A DNA stretch of 64,000 bases from a virus: the IMG/VR virus record IMGVR_UViG_3300014501_000003, positions 1 to 64,000 of that record; one strand, written 5' to 3'. Both the position numbers and the translations under genes were made by a program. Below are positions 23,384-61,492 of this stretch, piece by piece. Position 1 is the stretch's first letter. Each line of letters begins with the position of its first letter. Under the pieces are notes generated by a model. The model ran no database searches. It had not been told where the DNA came from and saw only the letters and a program-made list of their open reading frames with translations.

Positions 23384-23429
23384 GGGCAGCCTCCTTCTCT
23401 TATGCGATCCTTCGCGGTTTAGAGCGCGG

Positions 23430-40300: not shown

Positions 40301-41354
40301 TGATCTGATAGGCCCCGGCTCCGAACAGCGTCTTCTCGGCGAAGATCTGCTGCTGCTGGGAGAGCCCCGCGAGCTTCGGTCCGAGCTGGGCGATCACGCC
40401 CGACATGCCGATGAACTTGCCCTGGGAGTTGAAGATGTTGACGCCCAACGCCTTGAGCACGTTGTCGGTTTTTTCGGAGCCCCCGACGAGCGTGGTCATC
40501 GCGGTGTTGACGACCTGGATGCCACGGGAGCCCGTGACCCCGTGCTCACCGAGGGACACCATCAGCCCGCCCATGTCCGAGAGGGTCGGTGAGAGGGTGC
40601 CGAGCCGGGCGTGCAGTTTGTCGATCGCCGTCGCCAGCGAGCTGATCGGCACGTCCAAGCGGGTCGAGACGTTGTAGAGCGTGTCCGCCGTCCCCGCCGC
40701 CTGTCCCGCTGACATGTGGAACGCCTGCATCACGGCCCCGAGCGATGCGGTGGTGCTCGCCAGTTCGCCCTGCACCGCCGTGTTCAGCTGCGTGGCCGAG
40801 GACATGACCTTCATCGCTTCGGCTGTCCCCAGCGCATGGCCCTCGGTCGCCTGCAACTGGCCAGCCACCCCGGCGTAGGCGGACTCCATCTGCATCCCCG
40901 AGGACTCGAACTGCCCGGCCGTCCCGCCGAACGCCGCCGTGAGCGCTTTCACAGCCTTCGTCGACTGCCCCGTCGCACCCTGGATCTTCGCCTGGGCCGA
41001 TTCGTACTGCAGCCCCATTTTCACGGCCTCGACACCGACACCTACTGCCATCGCTCCACCAGCGAGGAGGGTGGCCTTGCCGAGCTCCCCCATGACCGAG
41101 GTGAGCTTGCCCGTCTTCGTCGTGGCTTCGTCGAGATGCTTGCCCGCTGTCGAGAGCCCGGCGGCGAACGGGATGCCCATCCCTTCGGCTTTCTTGCCGA
41201 GCTTCTCCAGGGCGTTCCCGGCCTTGGTCGACCCCGAGTTGAACGAGTCGCCGATCGTGTCGGATGCGCCCTTCGCCACTAGGCCCGCCCGCTCGAGGCT
41301 GGCCTCCAGGCCCCGGCTGTCGCCGAGGATCTCGATCGTGACCGTGCGTGCCAT
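37311..41354 (-). CDS. Tape measure protein, 1347 aa
   Basis: Very long A/G/Q/E-rich helical ORF with TM-like segments, in the canonical position. Confidence 0.95.
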   Translation of the reverse strand: MARTVTIEILGDSRGLEASLERAGLVAKGASDTIGDSFNSGSTKAGNALEKLGKKAEGMGIPFAAGLSTAGKHLDEATTKTGKLTSVMGELGKATLLAGGAMAVGVGVEAVKMGLQYESAQAKIQGATGQSTKAVKALTAAFGGTAGQFESSGMQMESAYAGVAGQLQATEGHALGTAEAMKVMSSATQLNTAVQGELASTTASLGAVMQAFHMSAGQAAGTADTLYNVSTRLDVPISSLATAIDKLHARLGTLSPTLSDMGGLMVSLGEHGVTGSRGIQVVNTAMTTLVGGSEKTDNVLKALGVNIFNSQGKFIGMSGVIAQLGPKLAGLSQQQQIFAEKTLFGAGAYQIMGSVIQSGVPAYQKATDAATKTGTAQQAAAIQAKTLRGEFDTAKAAVETLGGDLGLVLIPKLTAVAKTLAEGITWLTKHKEACMILGGVITSVLGAAVSVFAYQKATQFVTGTREMVKGLTTFGSSIAQTVPSILTKMGLIGSTSQTTAAAQLAANEEMEANNVALASSYGMTAGEIKAAGTGIVASADTTAAGVDAALGATGVGLVLVGVGVAAVELEQHWKTVMKGLEIAAQEMANAVIAALNKAMSVVEKLTLGLVHLGKIKELSGAGGTAGKEGNLNEPLSPNLQKAQNRAMGIGGSVGVESEILKFWESKGFSPAAAAGFAGNAQLESGDTPSDKGGGLYQQSGLGSAGAEQVAGLSVAGQSEEVLRRLSPSQIAQLKSAKNPAEAARFIEKEFEVPAGSRPGEPGYGTPEEGTAHLHQREQAAAEAYAHSGGGKASAGTGSGSSGISGLMNETSNAKAVSKEEKAKEKAQSKAESAAKTAATKAEAAAKKAAEALVKLGEKAEGLVKKYEANIQSSTPAAIERSLGVSTTAQTGKPVTRHGVRFGAGPTIPEMALHDAEAGSTGGKPMTQLTAALTKSASQSVAGKQEQALVNALNATHQKKLEELASKLVAAHKLALATLASEMVSTEETKLGEQLKVQATEQKDQTTQLEHTATDQLNVVKASQAQQTDAMKAAGQAIADATQSMSDSFSALTQSIEDQSKVMAAASNEVVTGIKDQTNIEVSILGERGLYGLNLIAQKEEVQLDEMKASYDQQIAQAQREDAQLAVNWQQVTALDEQTVDQDKAMADAQEASALAHVDAVTVAQDQKIQIAQEEVDRAQSHADQLIGNAELKVLAATGGGKQKEEAAAAKLHQAEGEAGMLVAGAEHHLKAEVNPAAEAAINAASNELTRTTESWSNAIKQAEQNLARAKGEGAAQLAQAQQNLTQIEDTAAQREAAKEREVSVTKEKATTQYAGSGLVVNQYGLDMNNAQANATELTWALTHQLPV

Positions 41355-42441: not shown

Positions 42442-43095
42442 TTAGGTCAGGCCAGCGCCCGGAAACGGCCAGATGGCCTGCTTCCGGCGATTGCAGGGCA
42501 CGCACGCGGGACGAAGGTTCGCGTGACAGTGCGTGCCGCCGTGCTTCAAGGGCTTGACGTGATCGAACTCCGTGGCCTCGGCGCCGCACATCCAACAGCG
42601 ACCGCCGTAGAAGTCCCAGCGCGCCGCGAGGCCAACGGCCGTGACCGTGCCGCGTGGCATCTGCTTCTTGACCGCTCGGCGGCGATACTGGATCGCCTTG
42701 CGCGCCATTGGATTGCGTTTGCGTTCGCGGCGATCCTTCTCGCGCCACTTCTCGGGATTCGCCGCGCGGTCAGCGCGCGCCCATGCTTCCTTCGCCGCCT
42801 TGCGCTTTGCGTTCTGCTCAGGCGCCCGGGCACGGCCAAGGGCACGACTCGCCTCCACGTCACGCCAGTAGGCGGCCTTGACGCGTGCTTTGACGAGTCC
42901 GAGATTGGCCGCGCGATAGGCGCGCGCGGCGGCCTTGATCTGCTCCCGTTTCGCTTCGTAGCGCGCGCGGTTGTAGTCGCTAAAGCAGGCACGACACCAG
43001 TGGTGCCGACCGTCCGCACTCCGCTTGCTGCGGTTGAATGCTTCGAGTGGCTTGCGTTTGCCACACCGCCGACACCGCTTGCTACCGTCCGCCAT
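42442..43095 (-). CDS. HNH endonuclease, 217 aa, between the major tail and chaperone genes
   Basis: EFDHVKPLKHGGTHCHANLRPACVPCNRRK, with N-terminal CRRC...CRAC. Confidence 0.9.
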   Translation of the reverse strand: MADGSKRCRRCGKRKPLEAFNRSKRSADGRHHWCRACFSDYNRARYEAKREQIKAAARAYRAANLGLVKARVKAAYWRDVEASRALGRARAPEQNAKRKAAKEAWARADRAANPEKWREKDRRERKRNPMARKAIQYRRRAVKKQMPRGTVTAVGLAARWDFYGGRCWMCGAEATEFDHVKPLKHGGTHCHANLRPACVPCNRRKQAIWPFPGAGLT

Positions 43096-43177: not shown

Positions 43178-44248
43178 TTAGAAGGAAGTATCTCCCGTAG
43201 TCAATTCCGCCGACACGACCGCTTCGTTCGTCGCGTTGATGGTCGCTTTGGCCGCGAAGGTCGTTTTCAGAAGGTCCGGCCCGTCGATCGGGAACTCCGC
43301 GCCGGACATGATGAAGACGTTCGGCATCTTGAAGAGGAACAGGTTGGGTTTGCCCGAGGTGCCGATGTTCGCCCCGGTCGCCTGAGCGATGATTTCCTGG
43401 GCTTCGTTTTTGAGGAACGTTTCCAGCACGTTCTTCGCGGCTTCGGTGTTATCGCATTCGCAGGAGACGCCGATGTCCACCAGCCCGTTTGACACCGGGA
43501 GCGACTTTTCGTTTTCCCCGAGGTACCAGCGGTCGGTGGCCAGCTTGTGCTCGAGCGTGACCGTCATCTTTCGCACGCCCGCGAGCGCTGCGGTTCCGCC
43601 GGGGTTGCCGATCTTGAATTCCGAGGAGCCTTCGTTCATCGCGAACGGCACGCCGTTGGTGGTGAACGTCGGCAGCGTCGGGTTGGCGTTGGGTGCGACG
43701 TGGCGGAAGTCGATGTCGTAGCTGTAGGAGCACAGCCCCATGCGGTCGAACACGAACTCCGCCTTGGTCGGGATGCCGGCGGTGTAGCGCCAGCCGACGT
43801 TTTCGGAGTTCGTGTACGGCAGGCCGACTTCGATGTCCAGGAACGTGGATTCTTTCGCGGCGTCGTGGGACTCGGGGGCTTCGAGGTTGATCCCTTTGAT
43901 GCCCGTTCCCGTGAAGAGCTGGTAGGCGGCTCCTGTGCCCGACTCTTTCAGCGTGCCGTTCGACCCGAACGCGCTCACGAGCAGCAGCGCCTGGGCAGTC
44001 GTCATCACGTCGCCGGTGAGCGTCGCTTTGGCGTCGATGCCCATCTTGACGAGCGCCGAGCCGATGTCCGCGATGCGGCCAGCTGCCAGATACGGGCCGC
44101 CCTGCACCTTGTGCGGGTCCCAGGTCGGCTTGAACGTCTTGAAGTACAGCGTCCGGGGTGAGCCCGTGACGAACGCTTCGTTGTATTCTTTGTGCCGCGC
44201 GACGGTGGCCCATGCGCCGAGCCCCGAGCCGGAAGTGAAAGTAGTCAC
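43178..44248 (-). CDS. Major tail (tube) protein, 356 aa
   Basis: Call rests on position upstream of the chaperone and tape measure, size, and beta-rich composition. GTG start in a GTGA overlap. Confidence 0.8.
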   Translation of the reverse strand: MTTFTSGSGLGAWATVARHKEYNEAFVTGSPRTLYFKTFKPTWDPHKVQGGPYLAAGRIADIGSALVKMGIDAKATLTGDVMTTAQALLLVSAFGSNGTLKESGTGAAYQLFTGTGIKGINLEAPESHDAAKESTFLDIEVGLPYTNSENVGWRYTAGIPTKAEFVFDRMGLCSYSYDIDFRHVAPNANPTLPTFTTNGVPFAMNEGSSEFKIGNPGGTAALAGVRKMTVTLEHKLATDRWYLGENEKSLPVSNGLVDIGVSCECDNTEAAKNVLETFLKNEAQEIIAQATGANIGTSGKPNLFLFKMPNVFIMSGAEFPIDGPDLLKTTFAAKATINATNEAVVSAELTTGDTSF

Positions 44249-45032: not shown

Positions 45033-45517
45033 TCGATCACCCCTCCCCAGCCGCCGGGTTGACCGGCGATGATGTCGAGCCCTGCGGTGTAGTCGGCCTG
45101 GATCGGGAACATGACCTGCGCGCTCGGGCCCGTGGTGCCGAAGGTCGGCTGATTTCGGTTGGCGATGGCGGGGCCCGCCACACATTCGCCGAACAGCTCG
45201 AAGGTCTGCGCCATCACTTCGGCCGCGAGTTCGGCTGCGCGCGCCGGTTCCGTGGCTGGCGGGGTTTCGCCGGTGAAGTAGCTCGCTTTCCCCTGGATCT
45301 CGTATTCCTCCGCGAGCTGGATCGGGATGGCGTGCCAGTCATACCGAGGTCCCTTGATCGGGCCGACGATGATGTAGCGGGCGGGCTCGAACTGGGCGAG
45401 CGCGCCGGGGAACACGCTCACGGGCTTGGACTGTTCCTCGGCGGCTTCGCGGACGAGCTTCAAGAGGCCCGCGTAGATGCCGGGGACCGAGGAGACGAAG
45501 GCGGTCGGTTCGGTCAC
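44981..45517 (-). CDS. Head-tail joining or tail terminator-like protein, 178 aa
   Basis: GTG 45517 sits in a GTGA overlap. The call is based on position only. Confidence 0.65.
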   Translation of the reverse strand: MTEPTAFVSSVPGIYAGLLKLVREAAEEQSKPVSVFPGALAQFEPARYIIVGPIKGPRYDWHAIPIQLAEEYEIQGKASYFTGETPPATEPARAAELAAEVMAQTFELFGECVAGPAIANRNQPTFGTTGPSAQVMFPIQADYTAGLDIIAGQPGGWGGVIDWALTFKAIISPSPQLG

Positions 45518-46164
45518 CCGATGCCTACCTGCGTGTAGTTGTTGAGCCGGGCTTTGACCTCGGGCAGCATCCCCGGCAGCAGGCCCGGCTCGACCTCCCC
45601 GTGCTCGCCGACCATCTGCGGAGCCCCGCCGCGTGACGCCTGCTGCTCCTTGCGCCACTCGTGCGCGATCTGTTTCAGCGTGGCGTTGCGGATCGGCGGC
45701 GGGAGCGGGTCATAGCCCGCGGTCCACACCACCTCGATGTTTCGCAGGCCGGGGAAGAACGGGCGCGGCACGAGCCCCTGGAAGGACCGCACGATGTAGC
45801 CCCGCAGCGGGTCGATCGTGAACATTTCGTTCGAGCCCTGGTGCTCGGGGGTCTGTTCTTCGAGGACGTGTTCGCCGTTGACGCCCCAGAACTCAGCGAC
45901 ACGCTGCACGCTCTGGATCGGGTAGTAGGGCAGCATCAGCGTGTTGCCGCTCCACACCGAGAAGCGTTTGGCGAACAGCGTCGGGGCGAACGGGCGGCCG
46001 AGCTCGTCTTGGAGCCACCAGCACACGTCGTCGACGACTTCCTTGAGCTTCGTCTCTTCGCCCGCGACCGGGACGTCGCCCATCTGTAGCCAACTCTTTA
46101 CGTCCAGGTCCACGTCAAGGTAAGTGGTCCACTGCGGGCTACCGTCGTAGTTGTACGTGGTCAT
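45514..46164 (-). CDS. Head-tail adaptor/connector-like protein, 216 aa
   Basis: ATG 46164 follows GGGGGTGG. The call is based on position. Confidence 0.65.
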   Translation of the reverse strand: MTTYNYDGSPQWTTYLDVDLDVKSWLQMGDVPVAGEETKLKEVVDDVCWWLQDELGRPFAPTLFAKRFSVWSGNTLMLPYYPIQSVQRVAEFWGVNGEHVLEEQTPEHQGSNEMFTIDPLRGYIVRSFQGLVPRPFFPGLRNIEVVWTAGYDPLPPPIRNATLKQIAHEWRKEQQASRGGAPQMVGEHGEVEPGLLPGMLPEVKARLNNYTQVGIG

Positions 46165-46190: not shown

Positions 46191-46736
46191 ATGATGTCGA
46201 AGGCATGTTCGGAGTGCGGCGACTCCTTCTCGCTGACCTCCGGCCGCCGTCTGACATGCAGCGAGCGGTGCGCCGGCAAGCGGCACTACCGCTTGCGCTG
46301 CGAGCGCCATCCGCTCGTGCGGCCTACGCTCACGCCGCAGCCGTGCATCGAGTGCGGAACGATCTTCCAGCCGACGGTCCCGAACCGGAAATACTGCTCG
46401 AAGGTCTGTAGCAGGAAGGTGGCGAGCCGCGCTATCGAGAAACGCCTCGGCGGCTCGCGCGCTCGGACGCTGTGGTTCAACTACAAACTGACGCTGGCTG
46501 CGTTCGACGCGCTGCTGGCCGCCCAGGGCGGCGTCTGCGCAATCTGTGGCAGTGACGATCCGGGGGCGGCGAACTGGTGCGTCGATCACGACCATGCCTG
46601 CTGCCCGACGAAGGGTCGGTGCTGCGGCAAGTGCGTCCGGGGCCTGCTCTGCGACATGTGCAACCGCACTCTCGGCACCGCCAAGGACGACCCCGACCGC
46701 CTCCGCAAAGCGGCGGCCTACCTGGAGCGCGGCTAG
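46191..46736 (+). CDS. Endonuclease VII-type nuclease with N-terminal zinc ribbons, 181 aa
   Basis: CAICGSDDPGAANWCVDHDHACCPTKGRCCGKCVRGLLCDMCN matches the EndoVII pattern. Confidence 0.85.
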   Translation: MMSKACSECGDSFSLTSGRRLTCSERCAGKRHYRLRCERHPLVRPTLTPQPCIECGTIFQPTVPNRKYCSKVCSRKVASRAIEKRLGGSRARTLWFNYKLTLAAFDALLAAQGGVCAICGSDDPGAANWCVDHDHACCPTKGRCCGKCVRGLLCDMCNRTLGTAKDDPDRLRKAAAYLERG

Positions 46737-46741
46737 CCCCC

Positions 46742-47077
46742 TCATCCGCCGGGGGTTTCTTTCGGGAGCAGCGAGCCGAGGTCGGTCGCGCCGGGGCCGA
46801 CCGGCACGGTGATCCAGAACGTCTCGGGCGACGCGCCGGTGATGCGGAAGTCCACTCGGTACTGACTGTCGCCCGGGGCCGTGCCCGTGTCTACGTTGGA
46901 GGGGAGTTCGACGGAGAGTTCGCCGGTGCCGCTCAGGGCGGCGGAGACGGGGCCGGGCACGATCGTTTCGGCACCGTTCGTGATCCGCTTCGAGAGCGTG
47001 AACTCGATCGCGCCGGAGGCCGCCGCGCCGCTGGGTTCGGTCAGCTTGTGAGTGATCGTCCTCTTGGTGAAAGCGAT
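46742..47077 (-). CDS. Beta-sandwich-like structural protein, 111 aa, proposed ATC start
   Basis: Track ORF starts at GTG 46960. The frame is open and protein-like a further 39 codons up to ATC 47077, which lies 6 nt after GGAGG. Confidence 0.5.
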   Translation of the reverse strand: MAFTKRTITHKLTEPSGAAASGAIEFTLSKRITNGAETIVPGPVSAALSGTGELSVELPSNVDTGTAPGDSQYRVDFRITGASPETFWITVPVGPGATDLGSLLPKETPGG

Positions 47078-47255: not shown

Positions 47256-47452
47256 GCATCCTGCGAATCAAGACCGATGAGGCAATCCGCGAGCGCTACG
47301 GCCCAGAGCCGAGCCCGTACGCCGACTGGCCGCAGACCTTGCGCTGTCAGCAGATCGAAGCCGCCAACGCGATGCGCGAGCTAGTCACGCAGCTCCTGAC
47401 GGTCTTTGCTCACGCCCTTCGCCGCGCCCTTCCTTCCAGCTCGACCCCATAG
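47252..47452 (+). CDS. Hypothetical protein, 66 aa
   Basis: Track ORF. Its 3' end overlaps the convergent glycosyltransferase gene. Confidence 0.4.
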   Translation: MSILRIKTDEAIRERYGPEPSPYADWPQTLRCQQIEAANAMRELVTQLLTVFAHALRRALPSSSTP

Positions 47453-48035
47453 GCCCCACCTCTGCCCGCTCCAAGTAGTAGGCGTCCTCGGCGTCGGGCT
47501 CTCGGACGTACCACGATCCGTGGCGGGCGAGATAGGGTGCCCCGGTCCTGATCGCCTCGTACTCGAACTCTGCACCGGGGCGGTAGAGGGCGAACGTCGT
47601 GTCGATCAGCGAGTCGAAGACTCCGGGCGACGTTTCACGCGAAACCAACTGGCGCTCCCAGCCCTTGCTCGGGAACTCCACGTCGTCCAGATAGAGCCCC
47701 AGCCCTGCCTTGGAGTAGCCGGGGTGAGCGTCGAGTAGAGCCTGAAGGTGGGCCACGGCATCGAGGGGGCAGGAGTCCAGTGGCACGATGTCCGGGTCCG
47801 TGAGGACGAACGGCTCATCGGGCACCATCTCGGCCTCCCACAGCGCCCTGGAGCCGAGGTTGTTGCCGAGCCAGCGGACCTCGTGGCGGGTACCCGCTAG
47901 GTACCTCAGCAGCGGCATGTAGGTCGAGGCGTTGTCGAGGAACACGATCCGGTGGCCTGCGCGCTCAAGCCACTCGACCAGCTTGCGGAGATCCCGCAGG
48001 CGATCCCTTACCGTGATGTAGACGGTGATGTCCAC
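47385..48035 (-). CDS. GT-A fold glycosyltransferase, 216 aa
   Basis: ITVYITVRDR, RIVFLDNAST and LTDPDIVP (DxD). GTG 48035 chosen as start. Confidence 0.75.
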   Translation of the reverse strand: MDITVYITVRDRLRDLRKLVEWLERAGHRIVFLDNASTYMPLLRYLAGTRHEVRWLGNNLGSRALWEAEMVPDEPFVLTDPDIVPLDSCPLDAVAHLQALLDAHPGYSKAGLGLYLDDVEFPSKGWERQLVSRETSPGVFDSLIDTTFALYRPGAEFEYEAIRTGAPYLARHGSWYVREPDAEDAYYLERAEVGPMGSSWKEGRGEGREQRPSGAA

Positions 48036-48742
48036 AGGTGCCGGCGGCTTCGATAGAGAGCCCGGTCGGCCTCCATCGTCGCGTGCCCTTTGCGGTAGGT
48101 GGCGTCCATCTCGCCCTTGCCTGCGGCGGGGTGCTGGTGCTCCACGATCGCTCCGTCGGCGCGCATGAGCTTCCCGCGCGAGCGCGCGACCTCCCAGCAC
48201 TCAGAATCGCTGTAGTTGTGGTCATAGCCCGGGTAGATCACGACGCCGGGCACGTCCACACACCCCGACTGCTCCTCGATGTAGCGGCGGGAGACGAGCG
48301 CGTTCGTGCCATTCGCGTTGTGCAGGTCGTTGACCACGACCACGCCCTCGACCCTGCGCATGGTGCTCAGCGCCGCTGCGAGCCATCCTCGCTGGAACAG
48401 CACGTCATCTGCGCCGAGGAACACGTACGGGGCCTCGGTGGCGTGGAACAGGCGATTGATCCGGTTCGGCCAGGTGTCCCCGTCATCGCGCAGGAACGCG
48501 GCCCCGTGGCGTTCGAGCTCGTCCACGGTGGGCTGATCGGAGGCGGCGAAGACGACGCGGTGGGGCTCGGTCGTGGCGTCGGCGATGTTCGCCAGCAGGG
48601 GTTTGATCCGGTGCGGGCGGTCGAGGACCGGGATCAGGATCGCCGTGCTCAGTTCGTGACGTTCCGCGTCGCACGGCCGTGGGTGCGCAGCGCTTGGGGC
48701 ACACACACAAACCTGGCATCCATGTCCAGGAACTTGAGCCAT
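48008..48742 (-). CDS. GT-A fold glycosyltransferase, start uncertain
   Basis: AILIPVLDRP and FLGADDVLF. ATG 48742 follows GGAGG but GC3 is low there. Alternatives are GTG 48706 and CTG 48652. Confidence 0.7.
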   Translation of the reverse strand: MAQVPGHGCQVCVCAPSAAHPRPCDAERHELSTAILIPVLDRPHRIKPLLANIADATTEPHRVVFAASDQPTVDELERHGAAFLRDDGDTWPNRINRLFHATEAPYVFLGADDVLFQRGWLAAALSTMRRVEGVVVVNDLHNANGTNALVSRRYIEEQSGCVDVPGVVIYPGYDHNYSDSECWEVARSRGKLMRADGAIVEHQHPAAGKGEMDATYRKGHATMEADRALYRSRRHLWTSPSTSR

Positions 48743-49188
48743 AGCAAATAGTCCTCCACGATGTGCGAGACCGGATAGCCGCCCGCCCGCCGGAGCGTCT
48801 CGGTGCGGATGCACGCCTCCCCGTCGATGTAGTTATCGCCGCTGCGCAGCCGCTCGGCATCGAAAGGTCCCCAGGAGTGGGGGTGCCCGCGGCAGTAGGA
48901 GTAGACGACATCGGCGCCGTCGAGGTGCTGGGCCATGAGCTCCAGATACTCGGGGTCGAACGTGTCGTCATCGTCGAGGACCGCGATCCACTCTGTCTCG
49001 ATGGCGGCGAGGATCGCGTTGCGCTGGCGGGCGACGTGTTCGCAGCCGAAGCGGTCGGGCTCCTCGACCCGCACCAGCCACGGCACCGGGCCGATGGTCT
49101 GGGCTCTCACCGATGCGCCGGCCTTCGCCAGCAGCTCGTGGCGCTCAGGAATCGAGACTGTGACGACCGTGAAAGGGGATCGGGTCAC
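48649..49188 (-). CDS. GT2 glycosyltransferase, 179 aa
   Basis: GGAGG lies 6 nt before GTG 49188. TVVTVSIPERHELL and IAVLDDDDTF. Confidence 0.85.
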   Translation of the reverse strand: MTRSPFTVVTVSIPERHELLAKAGASVRAQTIGPVPWLVRVEEPDRFGCEHVARQRNAILAAIETEWIAVLDDDDTFDPEYLELMAQHLDGADVVYSYCRGHPHSWGPFDAERLRSGDNYIDGEACIRTETLRRAGGYPVSHIVEDYLLWLKFLDMDARFVCVPQALRTHGRATRNVTN

Positions 49189-49855
49189 GGACCACCTCCG
49201 CGGCCTGCATCTCGTTCCAGGCGGCTCGCAGCTCCTCATCGCCGGAGCCGTCCAGGCGGGTCATATGTGCGCCGTCGCCGCGCGCCCGGCCCACCGGATC
49301 GAGCGTGGCGCAGCGTTCGCGCACCTTGCGCTTGAAGTGCTCAAAGCCGCGGAACTGGTAGTGGCGGACTTCGAGCAGTCCCCATGTTCCGCCGGGGAGG
49401 CTCACGTCATGGTTGCCGGGAGCGATGTGCGCCTCCTCGGTCCAGCGGTAGGCGACCTTCGGCAGTCGCTCCGGTGCCGCGTACTTCAGCTCCCAGGTCT
49501 GGTGGTGCCAGAGCTGGGCGTAGAGCTTGCCGCCAACACCGAGCGCGAGGGCCTGTGCGATGGGTTTGCCGCCCGTGGCGAACCAAAACTCGTCAGCATC
49601 GAACGGGAGTATCCACTCGGTGCCCGCCTCGGCTGCCAGGTAGTCGATCCAGTAGGGCTGGCGATGGACGGGCTCGTCATCGACAAGCCTGGTGACGCGC
49701 CCGGTTTCCCGTTCCAGCCGCCGCAGAATGTCCGTGGTGCCGTCCGTTGAGGCATCGGCGATCAGGAGCTTGTCCACGCCGCCTGCGAGCAGGCACCGGA
49801 CGGACGCCTCGATGATGTCGGCCTCGTTGCGGACGGTGGAGACGGCTGCGATCAC
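49145..49855 (-). CDS. GT2-like glycosyltransferase, 236 aa
   Basis: VRNEADIIE, LLIADASTDGT and LPFDADEF. GGGAGG precedes GTG 49855. Confidence 0.85.
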   Translation of the reverse strand: MIAAVSTVRNEADIIEASVRCLLAGGVDKLLIADASTDGTTDILRRLERETGRVTRLVDDEPVHRQPYWIDYLAAEAGTEWILPFDADEFWFATGGKPIAQALALGVGGKLYAQLWHHQTWELKYAAPERLPKVAYRWTEEAHIAPGNHDVSLPGGTWGLLEVRHYQFRGFEHFKRKVRERCATLDPVGRARGDGAHMTRLDGSGDEELRAAWNEMQAAEVVRDPIPFHGRHSLDS

Positions 49856-49872
49856 GACGTGCCTCCCGGCCT

Positions 49873-49878
49873 TATGCT
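49873..49878 (+). promoter_or_regulatory. -10-like TATGCT, 6 nt upstream of ATG 49885
   Basis: TAnnnT hexamer with no SD. Confidence 0.35.
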
Positions 49879-49884
49879 TCGACG

Positions 49885-50295
49885 ATGAGCAGGATGGCCG
49901 CGTTCTACGGTGGCCCTTGGCATCAAGAGGAACACTCCGTGCCGGAGCCGATGCCGTTCGACATCCGCGTGCCGCTGCCCGTTGAGCCGATGGTGTTCGT
50001 CTCCCCGGAGCCGCCGCTGGCCCCTGATCTCCTGCTGCGCGTCGCGCGCTATGAGCGCCGCCGCCGCGAGCCCGCGTGGGTCTACGTCTGCGTGGACGAC
50101 GGGCACCCGCTGCCGAAGTGGACCATCGCTGTCATCACGCCGTGGGATGGCGAGGAAGGTGACGAACTCTTCGAGAACGTGGCGACCATCAGCGCGCGCA
50201 CCGCCGAGCACGCCGAACGCATCTACGGCAATCAGCACCCCTATGACCGGGACTACTGCTTCGTGTACGCGCGACCGCTGGGAGAACCCTGGTGA
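49885..50295 (+). CDS. Hypothetical protein, 136 aa, opposite strand inside the glycosyltransferase block
   Basis: Track ORF with high GC3. Confidence 0.65.
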   Translation: MSRMAAFYGGPWHQEEHSVPEPMPFDIRVPLPVEPMVFVSPEPPLAPDLLLRVARYERRRREPAWVYVCVDDGHPLPKWTIAVITPWDGEEGDELFENVATISARTAEHAERIYGNQHPYDRDYCFVYARPLGEPW

Positions 50296-50304
50296 CTAAC
50301 GGCC

Positions 50305-50991
50305 CTACGGCACCGCCACGAAGTGCTCCATGCCCCCGAGCGTCCCTTCGACGTGGGAGAACCCATCGAACCACGCGGGGTCAACGGGGCTCGGCCACCA
50401 TGGCTCATGCGTGGAGAGGTGCAGCGGGATGCCGCGCTCGGCGAGGAACGGCGCGACCGTCTCCAACACCAGCGCCTCCATGCCCTCGATGTCCATCTTC
50501 ACCAGACAGCAGTCCTCGATCGAGTAGTTCTCGAACAGCCGCTCGAGCGTGAAGCACGGCACCGTCTCCGTGGCCTCTGAGGCCTCATAGCGGATCACCG
50601 AGGACATGGCGGTCGCCCAGCCCTGCGGGTGGCTTGAGAGCTCGCAGGTGCCGTTGTAGTCGGCCAGGGCTCCATGGACGCAGCGGACCTTGCCGGGGAC
50701 GTTCCGCTCGACGTGGCGGGAGAGGAACTCGAAGGCCACTCGGTCGGGCTCTACGGCCACCACGTCGGCCCCGCGCTCTGCGCAGCCCATCGAGTGAGCA
50801 CCGATGCAGGCCCCGAGGTCCACGAACGTCGAGCCGGGCCTCACGAAGCGGTCCAGCACCTCAAGCGTGTCGTTCTCCCAGTTCTCGGCCTCCCACTGTT
50901 TCCAGAAGCCGGGGAACGGGCCTTCGGTGTAGGGAGCGGTCGGGGTGGGTTCGTCCACCTCCCAGGTCATGCCGCGTCGGGTGACGATCAC
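50305..50991 (-). CDS. FkbM-family SAM-dependent methyltransferase, 228 aa
   Basis: FVDLGACIGAHS and LVKMDIEGME. GTG 50991 is GTGA-coupled to a mini-ORF. Confidence 0.8.
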   Translation of the reverse strand: MIVTRRGMTWEVDEPTPTAPYTEGPFPGFWKQWEAENWENDTLEVLDRFVRPGSTFVDLGACIGAHSMGCAERGADVVAVEPDRVAFEFLSRHVERNVPGKVRCVHGALADYNGTCELSSHPQGWATAMSSVIRYEASEATETVPCFTLERLFENYSIEDCCLVKMDIEGMEALVLETVAPFLAERGIPLHLSTHEPWWPSPVDPAWFDGFSHVEGTLGGMEHFVAVP

Positions 50992-51119
50992 TCCAATATC
51001 CAGCGGATGCCGCGTCGGTGGCCATAGCCGGTTGGCATTGTGAGCCAGACGACATGCGTCGCGCCCGTCCAGTTGGCCTGCGAGCCTGCGATTGGCGTGT
51101 CGAGCCGCGTGCTGTTCAC
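50988..51119 (-). CDS. Small protein, 43 aa (below the track cutoff)
   Basis: GTGA overlaps at both ends. Translates VNSTRLDTPIAGSQANWTGATHVVWLTMPTGYGHRRGIRWILE. Confidence 0.45.
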   Translation of the reverse strand: MNSTRLDTPIAGSQANWTGATHVVWLTMPTGYGHRRGIRWILE

Positions 51120-51766
51120 TCCATCCACCCCGCCATCCTCTCATGGCCGATGTGCTCGACCCTCGGCTCATCCTCGATCCGTCCGAGGTAGCCGAAGCGG
51201 TAGCCGTGCTCGAGCAGCGTGTCGGTCACGTTGGGCTCTGAGAGCGGGCGCCCGCTCCTCAATGCCAGTTGGATCACCCGCGCGGGGATCAGCGAGGGGT
51301 TCGTCGTGAAGTTCGTCTCATGCTCGATCCACCCGTCGCGCTGGATGAACTCGCCGGGTTTGGTCTGCATGAAGCCGCCGGCCGCCTGCTCCTCGGCGTT
51401 GACGGGCTGGCGCTTCAGGGCGAGCTGGGCGATGTGCGGATGGGCGTCGAGCAGGCTCGCCATCGCCATCAGGTCCACGGGCTCGTTGTAGGTGAAGTCA
51501 TCCTCGGCGTGGAAGACGTACTCGGCGCCGGAGCGGATCACCTCGCGCCACACGGACTCGACGGCGGCGGCAAAGCCACGGCGCTGCTCGTGCACGAGGC
51601 TCGTGTAGTCCACATATCGCATCACGGCGGCGAAGTCCGGGTCGCCCGAGTCATCGACCATGACGCATTCATCGGGCCACGGGTCCAGCGACGCGCGCAG
51701 GCTCTCCACCGCTCGCTCTAGGCACTCCTCGCGCCCGTCCGTGGTGACGGCGAGGGCGAAGCTCAC
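51116..51766 (-). CDS. GT-A fold glycosyltransferase, 216 aa
   Basis: VSFALAVTTDGR, VMVDDSGD and FHAEDDF. GTG 51766 sits in a GTGA overlap. Confidence 0.75.
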   Translation of the reverse strand: MSFALAVTTDGREECLERAVESLRASLDPWPDECVMVDDSGDPDFAAVMRYVDYTSLVHEQRRGFAAAVESVWREVIRSGAEYVFHAEDDFTYNEPVDLMAMASLLDAHPHIAQLALKRQPVNAEEQAAGGFMQTKPGEFIQRDGWIEHETNFTTNPSLIPARVIQLALRSGRPLSEPNVTDTLLEHGYRFGYLGRIEDEPRVEHIGHERMAGWME

Positions 51767-52153: not shown

Positions 52154-52680
52154 CGCCAACACCCATGCGCCGGCCCGACCTTCCACGGCGAAGCGGGCGA
52201 GTCCTCATCCCTCAAGTGCTCCAACGGTGGCCCGTGAACGTGCATGATCTCGCCTCCGGGGTTCAGGACGTGGGATTGGAGCCAAGAGTCTAGGCGGCAC
52301 CAGTGCTTCGGAGGATGATCCTCATCGCTCAGCTCGCCGACCACGTCGAGCGCGTCGGGATAGCGGGCGATCAGCCCGGCCGAGAACTTCGCACACGACA
52401 GGCCCGCATACACCCGGCCGACGTAGGGCACTTGGTAGGAGCACCACGGCTCGTGACACTCCACAAGGGCATCGAGGGTGCCGGGGCGGACCACCACGTC
52501 GTGCTCGACGCAAATGAAGGTGCGCCTGTTTGCCCACAGGCTTGCCAGCAGCTCCCAATACGCCTCATCTGAGCCGGACACATCTACGAAGGCCACATCC
52601 CACCCTGCCAGTGCCTCGACTACCTCGGAGCGGAGGGGAGGGACGTAGGGGCAGGCGATGGTGGTTTCGTGGCCTCTCAC
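52150..52680 (-). CDS. VEHD-family paralogue 3 (unknown function), 176 aa
   Basis: TFICVEHDVVV, CHEPWC, LSCAKF and MHVHG are collinear with the other two paralogues. Confidence 0.7.
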   Translation of the reverse strand: MRGHETTIACPYVPPLRSEVVEALAGWDVAFVDVSGSDEAYWELLASLWANRRTFICVEHDVVVRPGTLDALVECHEPWCSYQVPYVGRVYAGLSCAKFSAGLIARYPDALDVVGELSDEDHPPKHWCRLDSWLQSHVLNPGGEIMHVHGPPLEHLRDEDSPASPWKVGPAHGCWR

Positions 52681-53078
52681 TTCCGCGCCTCAAGCACGGC
52701 CCGCCAAGGGTCGAGGTCGGCCAGGTGCGCCGCCATCGCCAGCTCGAACTCGTCGAGCGTGATGTGCTCGTCGAGGTACAGGCCCTTGACCCAATCGGCG
52801 GTCGGGTCGTCATCGTCGCTGGCCACAGTCTCCCGGCGGGGTAGCCAGGCGTGGCGGCTGCGGACCACCGACACTAGGCCCGCGCCGATCAGCGCCACGG
52901 CGAACGGCCCCATCCATATGAGCAGGGCGATGACACCGGGTGTGCCGATGTGTTGGTTGACTCCGTGACCCACTTCCGTCGAGCTCGCCACAGCGCCGAA
53001 GCCCACCGCGCCGCCCACGAGCCAGCCGACGGCCAGAGCCACACCGAACTCGCCCAGGTTTCGCCACTCGCGCCTCAC
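52677..53078 (-). CDS. Membrane protein (2-3 TM), 133 aa
   Basis: Track ORF with hydrophobic segments. Confidence 0.7.
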   Translation of the reverse strand: MRREWRNLGEFGVALAVGWLVGGAVGFGAVASSTEVGHGVNQHIGTPGVIALLIWMGPFAVALIGAGLVSVVRSRHAWLPRRETVASDDDDPTADWVKGLYLDEHITLDEFELAMAAHLADLDPWRAVLEARK

Positions 53079-53146
53079 ACCACGAACAGGCTAGCGGCGG
53101 GCCAGTCGGGGGAGGGCGACGGTGGTTTCGTGGCCCCTGTCAGACA
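53079..53146 (-). pseudogene. Chimeric remnant: 5' end of a VEHD-type gene fused to the 3' end of a 54366-type gene
   Basis: 53116..53138 matches 52655..52677 at about 21/23 positions (encodes RGHETTVALP versus RGHETTIACP). 53075..53110 aligns with 54366..54398 at 27/33 positions with a 3-nt indel (PDWPAASLFVV-stop versus PGWPAANLFV-stop). Confidence 0.55.
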
Positions 53147-54369
53147 TGCAGCGTGATCGTGACCTCTGCGCGGAGTCCCGGGTGGATGACGCTCAGCCGG
53201 ACTTCCGTGCTCACCGGCTGGACGTACTGCCCCTGTAGGCCGCCCACGTAGTACGCCATCGGGGCCGCGCCCATGTTCATATCCATGCCCCGGATCATGC
53301 CCCGCTCTAGCCAGGGGACCAGCTCGCGGACCCGCCGTTCGAGGCCGGTGCCGTAGTGCCCGCCCCAATTGTCGGGGAACAGCGGCTCGTGTTTCTCGGG
53401 GCCGAGCAGCCACGCCTCGGCTTCGGCGTGCAGGATTTCAGGGACCGGCTCAGCGCCAAGCTCGCGCGCCAGCGCCTCTGCGTCCTCCCAGCGGTCGAGC
53501 ACGCGGACGCCGTACTCCTCGGCGAGAAGGTCTAGGCCCGCGAGCCCTCCCGCCATCTCGACAGCCTGCATCGAAGCGCCGCACCGGTAACACGAAAGCC
53601 TCGCGCCGTTGACCGACCACGCGTGCGGGCAGTTGCGGTCAACGTCATCAACGCGTGACCTGTCGATGATGCCGACAAGCTCGGCGGTTTCCGCGCGCCA
53701 GCCGTCTGGGTGGATGATCAGGTTGCCGTACCCGATCACGACCGCGCCGACGGCGTAGGCGCCCACGCTGCCCGCGATGGCCTCCGGAGTCGAGTGGGCG
53801 TAGAGCCCGCAGGCGCAGTCCTCTTGCGGCGCGTTGTGTGCGGCAACCGTGGTGGCGACGCACTTCGCGCGCTGGGGCTCGCGCGTGATCGGCCAGCTCG
53901 CTTCGACGCCCGTCGATTTGAGTGGCCCCGTGCCGTCCCACTTGAACGCGCGGTAGCCGATGGCTGGCGCTTGGAGCTGGGCGGTCACGCGGGGACGGGC
54001 TCGGGCTTGCGCACGGGCTCCGCGGGCTCCGGGAGCACGAGCGGCTCCCGCTTCGGAGCCGGAGCGACCGCTGGCACCGTTCCCGGCTTGAGTCCCATGC
54101 CGCGATTCTACGCCCGTGGCCCGTCGCAGGTCTTGCTCGATGATGTCCACGATCACGCCATGCTGCCCCACGTCGCTGACGAGCTGAAGCGAGATCGCCT
54201 CGCCGACCACCGTCCCATTGGGCAGCCGCTTCCACGCCACCACCTGCGCGCGTGCCTGCGACCCGCCGAATCGGTAGGCCAGCGCACTCGGCACCTCGGC
54301 GGGCGTCTCCGCGAGCCGAATCCCTCGCTTGCCCAGCACTCGCCGCAACTCTGCCGTTGCATGGCTCAC
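53140..54369 (-). CDS. Hypothetical protein, 409 aa
   Basis: Track ORF with a GTG start in a GTGA overlap. Confidence 0.75.
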   Translation of the reverse strand: MSHATAELRRVLGKRGIRLAETPAEVPSALAYRFGGSQARAQVVAWKRLPNGTVVGEAISLQLVSDVGQHGVIVDIIEQDLRRATGVESRHGTQAGNGASGRSGSEAGAARAPGARGARAQARARPRVTAQLQAPAIGYRAFKWDGTGPLKSTGVEASWPITREPQRAKCVATTVAAHNAPQEDCACGLYAHSTPEAIAGSVGAYAVGAVVIGYGNLIIHPDGWRAETAELVGIIDRSRVDDVDRNCPHAWSVNGARLSCYRCGASMQAVEMAGGLAGLDLLAEEYGVRVLDRWEDAEALARELGAEPVPEILHAEAEAWLLGPEKHEPLFPDNWGGHYGTGLERRVRELVPWLERGMIRGMDMNMGAAPMAYYVGGLQGQYVQPVSTEVRLSVIHPGLRAEVTITLHV

Positions 54370-54971
54370 ACGAACAAGTTAGCCGCTGGCCAGCCGGGAT
54401 TCAGGTCGAGGACTCGCGGCTCCCCCATCCCGATCCACCGCTCCGCATCGAACCGACTCCTACTCGGGGGCTCCGGGAGAGAGCGCAGGTAGTCACACCG
54501 CGCCATCCAGAAGTTGCCCCCGAAGAACGGGGTCCTGATCGCATTGGGGAAGGCGTCGGGGGTCAGCCAGTGGCAGCCCACCGCGTCGTAGGACTCCAAG
54601 GCTTCGAGGTTGGAGCGCCAGTTGTCGATCACCCGCAGGCACATCGACCTTCGCCAGTCCGCCCGGAACTTCGTCACGTCTGAACTTCCCTTGGTATGCG
54701 CGTACATGCAGGCGCCGTCATTGGTCTGAACCCACTCGCGCAGGGCGTTGATCGTGACCTGCTCGTAGCCCTCGTCAGCTTCGGCGGCGACGGTCACATC
54801 GGGGAGCGGGCTGAAGGCGTCTGCGGCTGCTTCTCGCCAGAACTTCTCACCGACGAGGCCGAGATAGACCGGGCCGGTGAACTCCGCTTTCAGGAGCGTG
54901 TCGACCTGTTCTAGGACGGGCTCTGTCCAGTCTCCGTCAGCGAAAATATGGTAAAAATGCGATAGATGCAC
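54366..54971 (-). CDS. Hypothetical protein (YAHTKG / FGGNFW motifs), 201 aa
   Basis: GTG 54971 (or TTG 54977) avoids the antisense overlap with the plus-strand HNH-like gene. Confidence 0.65.
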   Translation of the reverse strand: MHLSHFYHIFADGDWTEPVLEQVDTLLKAEFTGPVYLGLVGEKFWREAAADAFSPLPDVTVAAEADEGYEQVTINALREWVQTNDGACMYAHTKGSSDVTKFRADWRRSMCLRVIDNWRSNLEALESYDAVGCHWLTPDAFPNAIRTPFFGGNFWMARCDYLRSLPEPPSRSRFDAERWIGMGEPRVLDLNPGWPAANLFV

Positions 54972-54995: not shown

Positions 54996-55592
54996 ATGCC
55001 CAAAGAGCTTGACGTGATGGGCCACCGGTTCGGTCGGCTGATTGCCATTCGGAAGATCACGCCCCCCGGAACGCGCAGTAAGTGGGAGTGCCGATGTGAC
55101 TGTGGCGCCATCACCATTGCAGCGCTCTCGCACCTACGAGGGGGACAGACTCGCTCATGTGGTTGCCTCCGTCGTGAGGTTTCAGTAGCCCTGTTCACAA
55201 GGATCGGACGCCAAAACGCCGGCAAGCGCGTCAAACACGGCCACGCGCCTTACAGCCGCAAACGCTCCCCTACCTATGGGAGCTGGTCCGCGATCAAAAC
55301 ACGCTGCCTCAACCCCAACGCCACGGACTACGAGAGGTACGGCGGGAGTGGAATCAAACTCTGCGAGCGCTGGCTCAAGTTCGAGAACTTCCTGGCCGAC
55401 ATGGGCGAGGCACCGGGGCCGGGCTACCAAGTCCACCGCAAGGACTCGGCGCGCGGCTATGAACCGGGCAACTGCGAATGGCTCACGAAGGGCGCCCACT
55501 CTACGTTGCACGGCAAGGAACGCGCCGCGAGGGGCGAACTCGGCCAAGGCCCGCGCGATCCCGTGACTGGTCGCTTCACTCGGGGCGCTTGA
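54996..55592 (+). CDS. Zn-ribbon + HNH_3-like homing-endonuclease-like protein, paralogue A, 198 aa
   Basis: FGRLIAI, CRCDCG, SCGC, YGGSGIKLCERW, ADMGEAPGPGY and GNCEW are shared with 57095..57706 and 60986..61492. Confidence 0.8.
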   Translation: MPKELDVMGHRFGRLIAIRKITPPGTRSKWECRCDCGAITIAALSHLRGGQTRSCGCLRREVSVALFTRIGRQNAGKRVKHGHAPYSRKRSPTYGSWSAIKTRCLNPNATDYERYGGSGIKLCERWLKFENFLADMGEAPGPGYQVHRKDSARGYEPGNCEWLTKGAHSTLHGKERAARGELGQGPRDPVTGRFTRGA

Positions 55593-56750: not shown

Positions 56751-57098
56751 CTAGCGAGTCTCCCTCACGACCGACTCGACCTCGACCAGCTCGCCGCCAC
56801 GATTGACGAAGTGGCGAAGCGTCCTCGCCCCGACCGGGCAGAGATAGAGTTCGCCCGCGTGGGCCTCCGGGCCCCGCCGGCAGTTCAAGCAGCAGCCGCC
56901 CGTCTCATCCGGCGTCCATCGCTTGCGCATATCCGCGCCCATCTCCGACACCATCTGGTCGTGAACCTCCCGCTCATGCGCCGGATCGGGTCCGGCCGCA
57001 CGTAGCTGAGCCGAGACGCGCGCCCCGCCCTCTCCCTCGTTGATCCCGATACCTCGCGGGGTCTTGATCTGCTCGGGCGGTAGGGGCTGCGGGGTCAC
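56751..57098 (-). CDS. Hypothetical protein, 115 aa
   Basis: Track ORF with CCLNC...C. Confidence 0.65.
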   Translation of the reverse strand: MTPQPLPPEQIKTPRGIGINEGEGGARVSAQLRAAGPDPAHEREVHDQMVSEMGADMRKRWTPDETGGCCLNCRRGPEAHAGELYLCPVGARTLRHFVNRGGELVEVESVVRETR

Positions 57099-57706
57099 GG
57101 CTTCTCCTGTTCCATGTCGGCTCGCACGAGCGTCACGAGCTCGGCTCGCGTCATCCCGAGCGCTTTGGCCACCGCGGCAAGGCTGATCGCCGGGCGTCGC
57201 TGTCGGCTGTTTCGTACCTGCTCAGACCGTGTCGCCCATCGGCAGTTTCCCGGTTCGTAGTCGCCGTCGTTGTCGATGCGGTCGAGTGTGTACTCAGGGC
57301 CAGGCTTCTCGCCCATATCGGTGAGAAAGTTCGGGAAGCCATCTGGTCCCTGCCAGCGCTCGCAGACAGTGATCCCGCGGCCGCCGTAGTTCTCCCACGA
57401 TGGGTCCCTTTGGTTTCTACAGCGCGCACGCATGAGCGTCCACGTCATGTAGAGCGGATGTCTTGACTTGCGGAACGCATAGCCGTGAACGCGCGGCCCG
57501 CTCGGAAGGTTTCGCTGCGATGTCTGCCGTACGAGACACCCACACGACCGCGTGTGTCCGTTCGCCAGATGGTTAGCGGCGACCACCGTCGTCTTTCCGC
57601 AGGAGCAGAGGCATCGCCAAGCTGTTTGCGTGCCGATATTCGCCACGCGCTCCTGCACGGTCAACCGTCCGAACTGCTGTCCGGCTTGATCGATAAATGC
57701 TCCCAT
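57095..57706 (-). CDS. Zn-ribbon + HNH_3-like homing-endonuclease-like protein, paralogue B, 203 aa
   Basis: [63 protein letters not shown]. Confidence 0.8.
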   Translation of the reverse strand: MGAFIDQAGQQFGRLTVQERVANIGTQTAWRCLCSCGKTTVVAANHLANGHTRSCGCLVRQTSQRNLPSGPRVHGYAFRKSRHPLYMTWTLMRARCRNQRDPSWENYGGRGITVCERWQGPDGFPNFLTDMGEKPGPEYTLDRIDNDGDYEPGNCRWATRSEQVRNSRQRRPAISLAAVAKALGMTRAELVTLVRADMEQEKP

Positions 57707-59084: not shown

Positions 59085-59145
59085 GTCCTCCGTTGGGGGA
59101 GTAGGTCCGACGCTTTGGAGCGCGCGTCGTCAGCGCGAAGTTGGA

Positions 59146-59173
59146 GGCGAGCGCCCCCGAAGGGACGCCCGCC
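59146..59173 (-). terminator. Hairpin with a UUCG tetraloop after capsid A
   Basis: On the minus strand GGCGGGCGTCCC-TTCG-GGGGCGCTCGCC (10/12 pairs), 10 nt after the stop at 59183. Confidence 0.45.
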
Positions 59174-59182
59174 AGAGGTCGC

Positions 59183-60847: not shown

Positions 60848-60967
60848 GTGCCTTGTCCTTTCGTGTGGGTTTTGTGTTCCCCACGCGATCCCGAACCGCA
60901 CTCCGGACATTGCCAGCAGTACTCGGCTTTTCGCCTTTCCTCGACCTAGCAGGGTGACCGTCGTGCG

Positions 60968-60976
60968 TGGTACTAT
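60968..60976 (+). promoter_or_regulatory. Extended -10-like TGGTACTAT, 9 nt upstream of ATG 60986
   Basis: TGn plus TACTAT. No SD. Confidence 0.4.
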
Positions 60977-60985
60977 CGTGGTCTG

Positions 60986-61492
60986 ATGTCTTGGCAAGAC
61001 AAGGTCATTGCGCCCGGCACCGTGCTCGATCACTGGACCGTGATTGGTCTTTCCAGCGAGAGGCATCGTCGCTATCGCATGTACATGTGCCGCTGCGTGT
61101 GCGGCACCGAACGCGTGGTGCGGAGCGATCAGTTGCTAGCGGGGCGGTCCCGCAGTTGCGGCTGCAAACGTCCGGCCGAGCGCAAGCGGCGCGCTCTCAG
61201 CGGGCCGAGCCTGCGAAGCCATTCCCTCTACAAGACTTGGTCTGATATGCGCTATCGGTGCCAGAACCCGAAGCACAAGAGCTACGCCTACTACGGCGGG
61301 CGCGGGATCACGGTGTGCGATCGGTGGCAGGTCTTCGCCAACTTCCTAGCCGATATGGGCGAGCGGCCGGAGGGCCTGACGCTGGATCGCCGCGACAACG
61401 ACGGCCCCTACTCGCCCGAGAACTGCCGATGGGCGACGCGGAAGGAACAGGCCGGAAATCGGCGCTCGCCCGAGATGCGCGGGCGCCGATAG
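60986..61492 (+). CDS. Zn-ribbon + HNH_3-like homing-endonuclease-like protein, paralogue C, 168 aa
   Basis: [56 protein letters not shown]. Confidence 0.8.

Follow-up and report, generated by a model that had tools for sequence, protein, structure and literature searches.

What are glycosyltransferases doing among the head and tail genes of a phage? The question is raised by a stretch of viral DNA of 64,000 nucleotides (positions 1 to 64,000 of IMG/VR record IMGVR_UViG_3300014501_000003), referred to here as the window, in which five predicted glycosyltransferases of the GT-A type and an FkbM-family methyltransferase are encoded inside the late structural operon. An earlier note, made from the letters and open reading frames (ORFs), had read this block as the source of a larger, possibly methylated, virion glycan. 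Its enzyme assignments and the late-operon position stood up to further analysis, while the novelty that it implied was overstated and the block proved not to be a single coupled unit. The best-supported explanation, which is on balance probable, is that the island coats the phage's own virion proteins with a glycan that may be methylated.

All five GT-A-type ORFs, designated GT1 to GT5, and the FkbM methyltransferase were intact on the minus strand between 47385 and 51817 (Table 1). Every motif string that had been listed for them was found in the expected minus-strand ORF, and the block lies on the late strand between the capsid genes (57738-61066) and the head-tail adaptor (45514-46164), as had been proposed. 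Gene boundaries were taken from the G+C content of third codon positions (GC3) and start-codon analysis; they were concordant with the independent gene calls of a near-identical ENA contig of 71,507 bp (L096; related loci are given L numbers throughout), which agreed gene for gene. In L009, a related contig, all six genes were full-length and kept the same order, with amino-acid identities of 59-89% (GT5 59%, GT2 66%, GT4 67%, GT3 84%, methyltransferase 89%), and they are, by this conservation, real genes under selection.

Profile searches supported four of the five glycosyltransferases and the methyltransferase, and left GT1 without a match. GT4 scored 46.1 bits against Pfam Glyco_tranf_2_4 (cut-off 27.5) and 26.6 bits against the Pfam family GT2. 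GT3 scored 34.2 bits against Glycos_transf_2 (cut-off 23.3) and matched PHROG 14775, a glycosyltransferase family, at 3.7e-15. The GT2 gene product matched PHROG 14945 (glycosyltransferase, 5.4e-11), with a Pfam GT2 score of 16 bits, below the cut-off, and a weak match to TIGR03965 MftF; a homolog of it (24% identity) also precedes the GT1 relative on an unrelated backbone, L013. GT5 was borderline for Pfam GT2 (23.1 bits against a cut-off of 23.3) and matched PHROG 3047, galactosyl transferase, at 1.8e-10. It was 34-37% identical to "galactosyl transferase" genes of Gordonia phages and 26-27% identical (E ~1e-6) to the "galactosyl transferase" of ~155 kb Mycobacterium myophages, and no cluster F or O phage was among the matches listed. 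The methyltransferase scored 80.7 bits against TIGR01444 (cut-off 37.7) and 33.8 bits against Pfam Methyltransf_21 (PF05050; cut-off 22.7), and matched PHROG 8156 at 7e-21; the glycine-rich motif I for binding S-adenosylmethionine (SAM), VDLGACIGAHS, is found where the matched domain begins.

DxD-type motifs were present in the translations of all five glycosyltransferases: TDPD (GT1), GADD (GT2), LDDDD (GT3), FDADE (GT4), and AEDD (GT5). Glycosyl transfer is the predicted activity of these proteins. The neighboring glycosyltransferases suggest that the FkbM enzyme may O-methylate a sugar hydroxyl.

GT1 had no profile match in Pfam, PHROG, or NCBIfam, and neither single-sequence nor profile searches of PDB sequences gave anything useful. 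In an alignment of GT1 with 49 homologs, D80 and D82 of the DxD motif were invariant and further acidic positions were conserved. The AF2 model built on this alignment had a pLDDT of 91.6, and a Foldseek search of the PDB returned 45 matches at E ≤ 0.001, nearly all of them GT-A glycosyltransferases or nucleotidyltransferases. The GT-A enzymes matched at E values of 1e-6 to 1e-4 included B4GALNT1 (1e-6), COLGALT1, dolichyl-phosphate mannose synthase, SunS, and TarP; the same model gave 133 matches in BFVD, many of them viral GT-A proteins. As judged from its predicted structure, GT1 is a GT-A-fold glycosyltransferase of a family that lacks a Pfam model. None of 290 metagenomic homologs carried a Pfam domain. 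The family was found in 340 IMG/VR contigs and at 285 loci in GTDB genomes, and tblastn found no homolog among 50,697 GenBank phage records. In cultured bacteria, GT1-family genes sit in cell-surface polysaccharide clusters, where their neighbors include GT2-family proteins (20 members), RmlD, GDP-mannose dehydratase, ABC-2/Wzt transporters, RgpF, and FkbM methyltransferases; none of the 25 most frequent families in these neighborhoods was a phage gene. In five GTDB genomes (L023, L026, L045, L061, and L066) a GT1-type domain lies inside ORFs of 820-1140 amino acids (aa), suggesting that it forms part of multidomain proteins there.

Five probably understates the number of enzymes. The island probably also takes in three minimal GT-A-like paralogs, here called the "VEHD" proteins, and a DUF8361 protein. 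Paralogs 1 and 3 were 38% identical, and alignment of the family showed invariant E-H-D residues following a beta strand, a pair of invariant cysteines, and a C-terminal HHHW. The best PDB match of the AF2 model, which was built on paralog 3 (pLDDT 91.3), was A197 of Sulfolobus turreted icosahedral virus (STIV; 2c0n; Foldseek E 7.5e-4, probability 1.00, TMq 0.50), and weaker matches after it were to GT-A enzymes and nucleotidyltransferases. Like A197, a small single-domain viral GT-A enzyme, the "VEHD" proteins are compact; however, sequence identity is 13%, the TM score is only 0.5, and the "VEHD" proteins have E-H-D in place of the canonical DxD, together with the conserved cysteines and the HHHW. 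Their enzymatic activity is a prediction. On this moderate, model-based evidence the three are probably additional minimal GT-A-like enzymes. No homolog of paralog 3 was found in GenBank phages, and the family profile found nothing useful among PDB sequences.

The DUF8361 family had 2018 representatives at E ≤ 0.001. Some of its members are fused to GT2, GT-B, or Methyltransf_24 domains, which ties the family to glycan synthesis, and it co-occurs with GT1 homologs on several backbones. These sequence associations suggest that the DUF8361 protein is probably a conserved, glycan-related partner of GT1. Its profile gave nothing useful against PDB sequences. An identification of the "VEHD" proteins with DUF8361 was considered and ruled out: homologs of the former carry no Pfam domain, and DUF8361 maps to a different ORF (54366-54971). 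Profile-profile comparison showed no relationship of the GT1 family with either the "VEHD" or the DUF8361 family, and they are therefore not mere divergent copies.

Three other features of the island were noted. A cysteine-rich protein of 399-409 aa (53140-54369, minus strand) had no family match; L006 has two shorter paralogs of its C-terminal part directly upstream of the GT1 homolog, and L009 lacks it. The product of 52677-53078 (minus strand), also without a family match, is the only island protein with transmembrane-like segments (about two helices). A Cpn10 (GroES-like) gene is encoded inside the capsid-to-adaptor island of L009 (4372-4659 of that contig).

Several properties of the island bear on where its product ends up. 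No transmembrane-like segment was found in the glycosyltransferases or the methyltransferase (maximum KD19 of 1.38). None of about 40 window ORFs scanned was recognizable as a flippase, a polymerase, an ABC transporter, or a lipid-carrier (polyprenyl-phosphate or phosphoglycosyl) transferase. The glycosyltransferase and methyltransferase genes share their strand with the capsid, adaptor, tube, and tape-measure genes. Soluble enzymes, the lack of a flippase or transporter, the head-gene neighborhood, and the precedent of mycobacteriophages (discussed below) together favor glycosylation of the virion. If so, the island would be transcribed late, along with the head and tail genes, and soluble cytoplasmic GT-A enzymes, drawing on the nucleotide sugars of the host, would assemble an oligosaccharide in place on exposed residues of the capsid, the tail tube, or both. 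GT1, DUF8361, and the "VEHD" paralogs, which are present in nearly all relatives, would be candidates for recognizing the acceptor or laying the core; the recurrent GT5-GT4-GT3-GT2 module would extend the chain, and the optional FkbM methyltransferase would O-methylate a sugar, possibly as a terminal cap. The enzyme families, fold, gene order, conservation, and modularity that enter this scheme were observed; we infer which protein is the acceptor, in what order the enzymes act, when they are expressed, and what is methylated.

The modularity became apparent when 29 related viral loci were typed, with the context of GT1 taken from its homologs. The ordered module GT5-methyltransferase-GT4-GT3-GT2-GT1 was found in L009, L100, and L120. 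The same order without the methyltransferase was found in L106/107, L116, and L117/118, and the methyltransferase is thus an optional part of an otherwise identical module. Other sugar modules occupied the same site in close relatives that share the capsid and tube genes: an NAD-epimerase/dehydratase, an SGNH protein, and a hexapeptide acyltransferase in L006/L097; a UDP-GlcNAc 2-epimerase and an epimerase in L012, a prophage in a 1.02 Mb contig; and a 197 aa gene of no known function with an epimerase in L003, from a contig binned to the Solirubrobacterales. Because close relatives carry different sugar modules at one site, different phages would display different glycans. On other backbones, L013/L108/L110 had a GT-B, a dehydratase, a sugar C-methyltransferase, a cupin, and a UDP-glucose dehydrogenase, and L014/L101 had a GT2, an epimerase, and a GT-B.

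GT1 was the last island gene in most of the typed loci, with one gene after it in L014/L101 (a GT-B) and in L116 and L117/118 (epimerase-like), and it was usually accompanied by DUF8361 or a "VEHD" paralog. Homologs of GT1 adjoin capsid and adaptor genes in relatives with the same backbone, and portal or prohead-protease genes on two other backbones. When the 149 neighbors from 15 viral loci were pooled and scanned with Pfam and PHROG, GT2, epimerase/dehydratases, methyltransferases, and acyltransferases dominated, and portal, capsid, and tail genes were scattered among them. The nucleotide-sugar enzymes found beside GT1 homologs comprised epimerase/dehydratase, UDP-GlcNAc 2-epimerase, UDP-Glc dehydrogenase, C-methyltransferase, cupin, hexapeptide acyltransferase, and SGNH proteins.

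A more far-reaching version of virion glycosylation can be offered only tentatively. In a widespread lineage of uncultured phages, the island might act as a "virion serotype" locus of modular build, in which a conserved core that recognizes the virion proteins is combined with interchangeable modules that set the glycan. GT1, DUF8361, and the three "VEHD" paralogs would, in this speculative scheme, form the core, and the result might be a diversity of phage surfaces resembling that of O-antigens. At least five alternative modules were seen, the five-enzyme module with or without its FkbM cap being one. In a soil or sediment setting antibodies play no part, so such a coat would have some different use; it might help the phage adhere to host exopolysaccharide, shield it from proteases or predators, or hide it from defenses at the host surface.

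The genes of the block had been described as largely translationally coupled. This was correct for GT4, GT3, GT2, and GT1, which overlap by 44, 58, and 28 nucleotides (nt), and did not hold for the upstream part, where GT5 and the methyltransferase are separated by 124 nt and a plus-strand gene precedes GT4. Translational coupling does not extend across the whole block. The plus-strand gene has a coding-type codon composition (G+C of the three codon positions 0.70/0.47/0.85) and three homologs, at 99, 70, and 48% identity; the homolog at 70% lies near the portal gene of another phage (L095) and is again anti-oriented, and the gene is absent from L009. By these comparisons it is an independent insertion that behaves like a mobile moron. 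Between 43000 and 62000, terminator-like sites numbered 11, against 8.5 ± 3.1 in shuffled sequences, and promoter counts were likewise at chance level, so these scans were uninformative about transcription units.

Several points weigh against glycosylation of the virion. A glycan on virion proteins and late expression of the island are predictions, and co-transcription of GT4 to GT1 with GT5 and the methyltransferase is assumed, across the anti-oriented gene that interrupts the block. There was no detectable orthology to the validated enzymes of Che8 and Corndog or to those of cluster J; only GT5 has relatives in Mycobacterium phages, and these are the distant ones mentioned above. The bacterial polysaccharide clusters with ABC-2/Wzt and RmlD suggest that the ancestral substrate of the GT1 family was a lipid-linked glycan and not a protein. 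Finally, the phage may be temperate, with a tyrosine recombinase (5515-6096) and a related prophage, L012, and these signs leave room for lysogenic conversion.

Modification of the host envelope is the rival that survives best, although we consider it unlikely. Working on the cytoplasmic side of the membrane, the enzymes would modify lipid-linked intermediates of the cell wall or O-polysaccharide, and the changed surface might, for example, exclude superinfecting phages or prevent re-adsorption of progeny. The island does resemble bacterial ABC-transporter-dependent O-antigen and capsule loci in its GT2, GT1-family, and FkbM genes, in the epimerase/dehydratases, and in cassette-like variability between close relatives, and bacterial GT1 homologs lie in just such clusters, with transporters and FkbM methyltransferases. 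However, the ORFs scanned in the window included no transporter, flippase, polymerase, initiating phosphoglycosyl transferase, or membrane protein of the GtrA/B/C type, so that the island differs both from those loci and from the Gtr system of seroconverting phages. Soluble GT-A enzymes are able to act on lipid-linked acceptors, but the lack of any transmembrane segment in these enzymes does not favor a membrane-based role. As to lysogeny, a recombinase is present and one relative is a prophage in a contig of 1.02 Mb, yet virion genes surround the island, which belongs to the late head-to-tail operon and is some 41 kb away from the recombinase, and the adjacency to head genes on the three backbones examined is an atypical placement for conversion genes.

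Hypermodification of DNA, in which one or more of the transferases would glycosylate modified phage bases and so evade restriction, is very unlikely. DNA glycosyltransferases with the GT-A fold do exist, and a TET-associated glycosyltransferase was among the weak BFVD matches of GT1 (rank 50). Some other viral contigs have a ThyX or ribonucleotide reductase gene close to their islands with GT1 homologs, but the window ORFs scanned yielded no gene of the hydroxymethylase, TET/JBP, or ThyX type; moreover, five different transferases, and the nucleotide-sugar tailoring enzymes of the relatives, better fit the assembly of an oligosaccharide, and the island sits in the structural module. A small-molecule or peptide target, suggested by analogy with MftF/MftM (mycofactocin) or SunS-type peptide glycosyltransferases, is the least probable of all, since the matches of GT2 to TIGR03965 MftF (26 bits) and of the methyltransferase to NF041255 MftM (17 bits) are far under the family cut-offs (280 and 200 bits), and the presence of SunS and ThuS among the Foldseek matches of GT1 is set against a structural-module context with no precursor peptide or radical-SAM genes nearby.

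The gene layout has precedents. In cluster J mycobacteriophages an insertion of 8-10 genes separates the major capsid gene from the head-tail connector gene, and in Thibault it includes five predicted glycosyltransferases, a SAM methyltransferase, and a kinase (Pope et al. 2013, PMC3706429). The novelty implied for a layout of five glycosyltransferases and a methyltransferase was therefore not borne out, as cluster J phages had already shown it at this position in 2013. Phages with the insertion include Thibault, Optimus, BAKA, Omega, and Ariel; in Ariel, the genes from gp13 (capsid) to gp22 (connector) enclose three for glycosyltransferases, one for a methyltransferase, and one for a kinase. 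The window and cluster J share the late-operon position of several glycosyltransferases and a SAM methyltransferase, a distantly related capsid (28% identity), and HNH endonucleases scattered through the structural operon. In contrast, BLASTP of the window enzymes against Ariel gp14-21 gave nothing better than E 0.06, GT1 to GT4 and the methyltransferase had no match in Mycobacterium phages by tblastn, and the island ORFs scanned had no match to a kinase or peptidase family, and hence no counterpart of the Ser/Thr kinase and zinc-protease-like genes associated with the cluster J insertion. The window also adds the GT1 family, DUF8361, and the three "VEHD" paralogs, none of which has a mycobacteriophage homolog. 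We found no report of a test for virion glycosylation in cluster J.

Glycosylation of capsid and tail-tube proteins by phage glycosyltransferases has been shown for Che8 (cluster F), Corndog (cluster O), and Myrna (cluster C), according to papers that cite the work (Freeman 2023, Cell Host Microbe 31:1216). Cluster O phages encode an O-methyltransferase followed by three tandem glycosyltransferases, and the Che8 genes lie near the right end of the genome, outside the structural operon. The window shares with these phages the encoding of glycosyltransferases, and with cluster O the grouping with a methyltransferase. Mammalian antibody evasion is an unlikely selective force here because the source is an environmental metagenome. 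The metagenomic phage GX15bay in GenBank has seven annotated glycosyltransferase genes and a methyltransferase upstream of its terminase. The arrangement itself is thus precedented. What appears from sequence comparison to be new is that the enzymes are not orthologs of those in mycobacteriophages, that the core consists of GT1, DUF8361, and "VEHD" proteins, and that modules are swapped between close relatives.

Table 1. Coordinates of the genes of the sugar island and of other features of the window.
Feature	Coordinates	Strand	Remarks
GT1, GT-A fold, 216 aa	47385-48035	-	Conserved adaptor-side end gene of the island in most typed relatives
GT2, GT-A, 232 aa	48008-48706	-	
GT3, GT-A, 179 aa	48649-49188	-	
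GT4, GT-A, 236 aa	49145-49855	-	GGAGG 6 nt 5' of the start
Small gene, 118-136 aa, not of the glycosylation set	49885/49939-50295	+	Between methyltransferase and GT4
FkbM-family SAM-dependent methyltransferase, 228 aa	50305-50991	-	Optional accessory of the module
GT5, GT-A (GT2-like), 216 aa (233 aa if start at 51817)	51116-51766	-	First gene of the module
"VEHD" paralog 3, 180 aa	44490-45032	-	Two genes upstream of the tail tube gene
"VEHD" paralog 2, 176 aa	52150-52680	-	Kept in L006, L009, and L012 at 64-76% identity
"VEHD" paralog 1, 160 aa	56044-56526	-	Four genes downstream of the capsid genes
DUF8361 protein, 201-203 aa	54366-54971	-	Homologs annotated PF27674 (precomputed)
Prohead protease	62281-63597	-	
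Major capsid paralog 1, candidate glycan acceptor	59183-61066 (start probably 60847)	-	PHROG 2263 major head protein, 2.9e-27
Major capsid paralog 2, candidate glycan acceptor	57738-59084	-	PHROG 2263 major head protein, 1.8e-11
Head-tail adaptor, downstream boundary of the island	45514-46164	-	PHROG 442 head-tail adaptor, 3.4e-14
Major tail (tube) protein, 356 aa, candidate glycan acceptor	43178-44248	-	Homologs carry PF18906 Phage_tube_2; upstream of tape measure
Tape measure gene	37311-41354	-	
Tyrosine recombinase, short, 193 aa	5515-6096		Adjoins helicase-methylase fusion 6284-8659

The window represents 64 kb of a metagenomic contig of about 71.5 kb and has a G+C content of about 66%. 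One of its proteins has a 100% identical copy in a JGI metagenome contig of 71,489 bp. Neither megablast nor blastn found DNA similarity of the region to the 50,697 GenBank phage records; as far as sequence comparison indicates, no close cultured relative exists. The source is an uncultured high-GC siphophage, and its host was probably a member of the Actinomycetota.

The right half of the window is the phage late operon, on the minus strand, in which a stretch of about 11 kb of non-structural genes separates the capsid genes from the head-tail adaptor. The tandem capsid paralogs are 32% identical to each other (E 5e-51); both are kept in L006, L009, and L012, and a single one is present in the more distant L003. 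Identity of the capsid protein to the capsids of cluster J mycobacteriophages and Bipper was 28-31%. Two capsid-type proteins are unusual in a siphophage, and the second could be a decoration or vertex variant.

Four HNH/Endonuclease VII-type genes are distributed across the structural operon (42442-43095, 46191-46736, 54996-55592, and 57095-57706), two of them on the opposite strand; homologs of the ORF at 54996-55592 are placed elsewhere in L003 and L006. The adaptor is apparently split: a single ORF of 296 aa in L006 and L009 spans the homologs of 46742-46960 (72 aa) and 45514-46164, which in the window lie in different frames of the minus strand about 577 nt apart, and the gap between them holds the Endonuclease VII (HNH-type) gene at 46191-46736 on the plus strand. 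This looks like the insertion of a homing endonuclease into a structural gene. Rfam models recognized neither an intron nor any other RNA family between 43000 and 62000, and the split is therefore not explained by a recognizable group I or II intron.

Outside the late head genes, a protein of 791 aa (6284-8659, minus strand) has a helicase C-terminal domain fused to an N6/N4 DNA methylase domain. A tail-fiber-like protein with the C-terminal (intramolecular chaperone) domain of a K1 lyase and a second protein with collagen repeats are also encoded on the minus strand (31703-33529 and 22055-23632, respectively), suggesting that the phage recognizes a polysaccharide receptor.

To our knowledge, glycosylation of the phage virion has been shown only recently and only in a few mycobacteriophages, in which it blunts recognition by antibodies. 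If host-envelope modification were the true explanation for this island, the finding would be an unusual placement of conversion genes. If instead the island does glycosylate the virion, the trait would be common in uncultured environmental phages, given the 340 IMG/VR contigs with a GT1-family gene inside sugar-gene islands, and it would be built from enzyme families unlike the known ones, varying in cassettes between close relatives. The island would also supply compact, soluble enzymes for the glyco-engineering of phage particles, and its existence would suggest that the surface glycans of phages are under selection outside animals as well.

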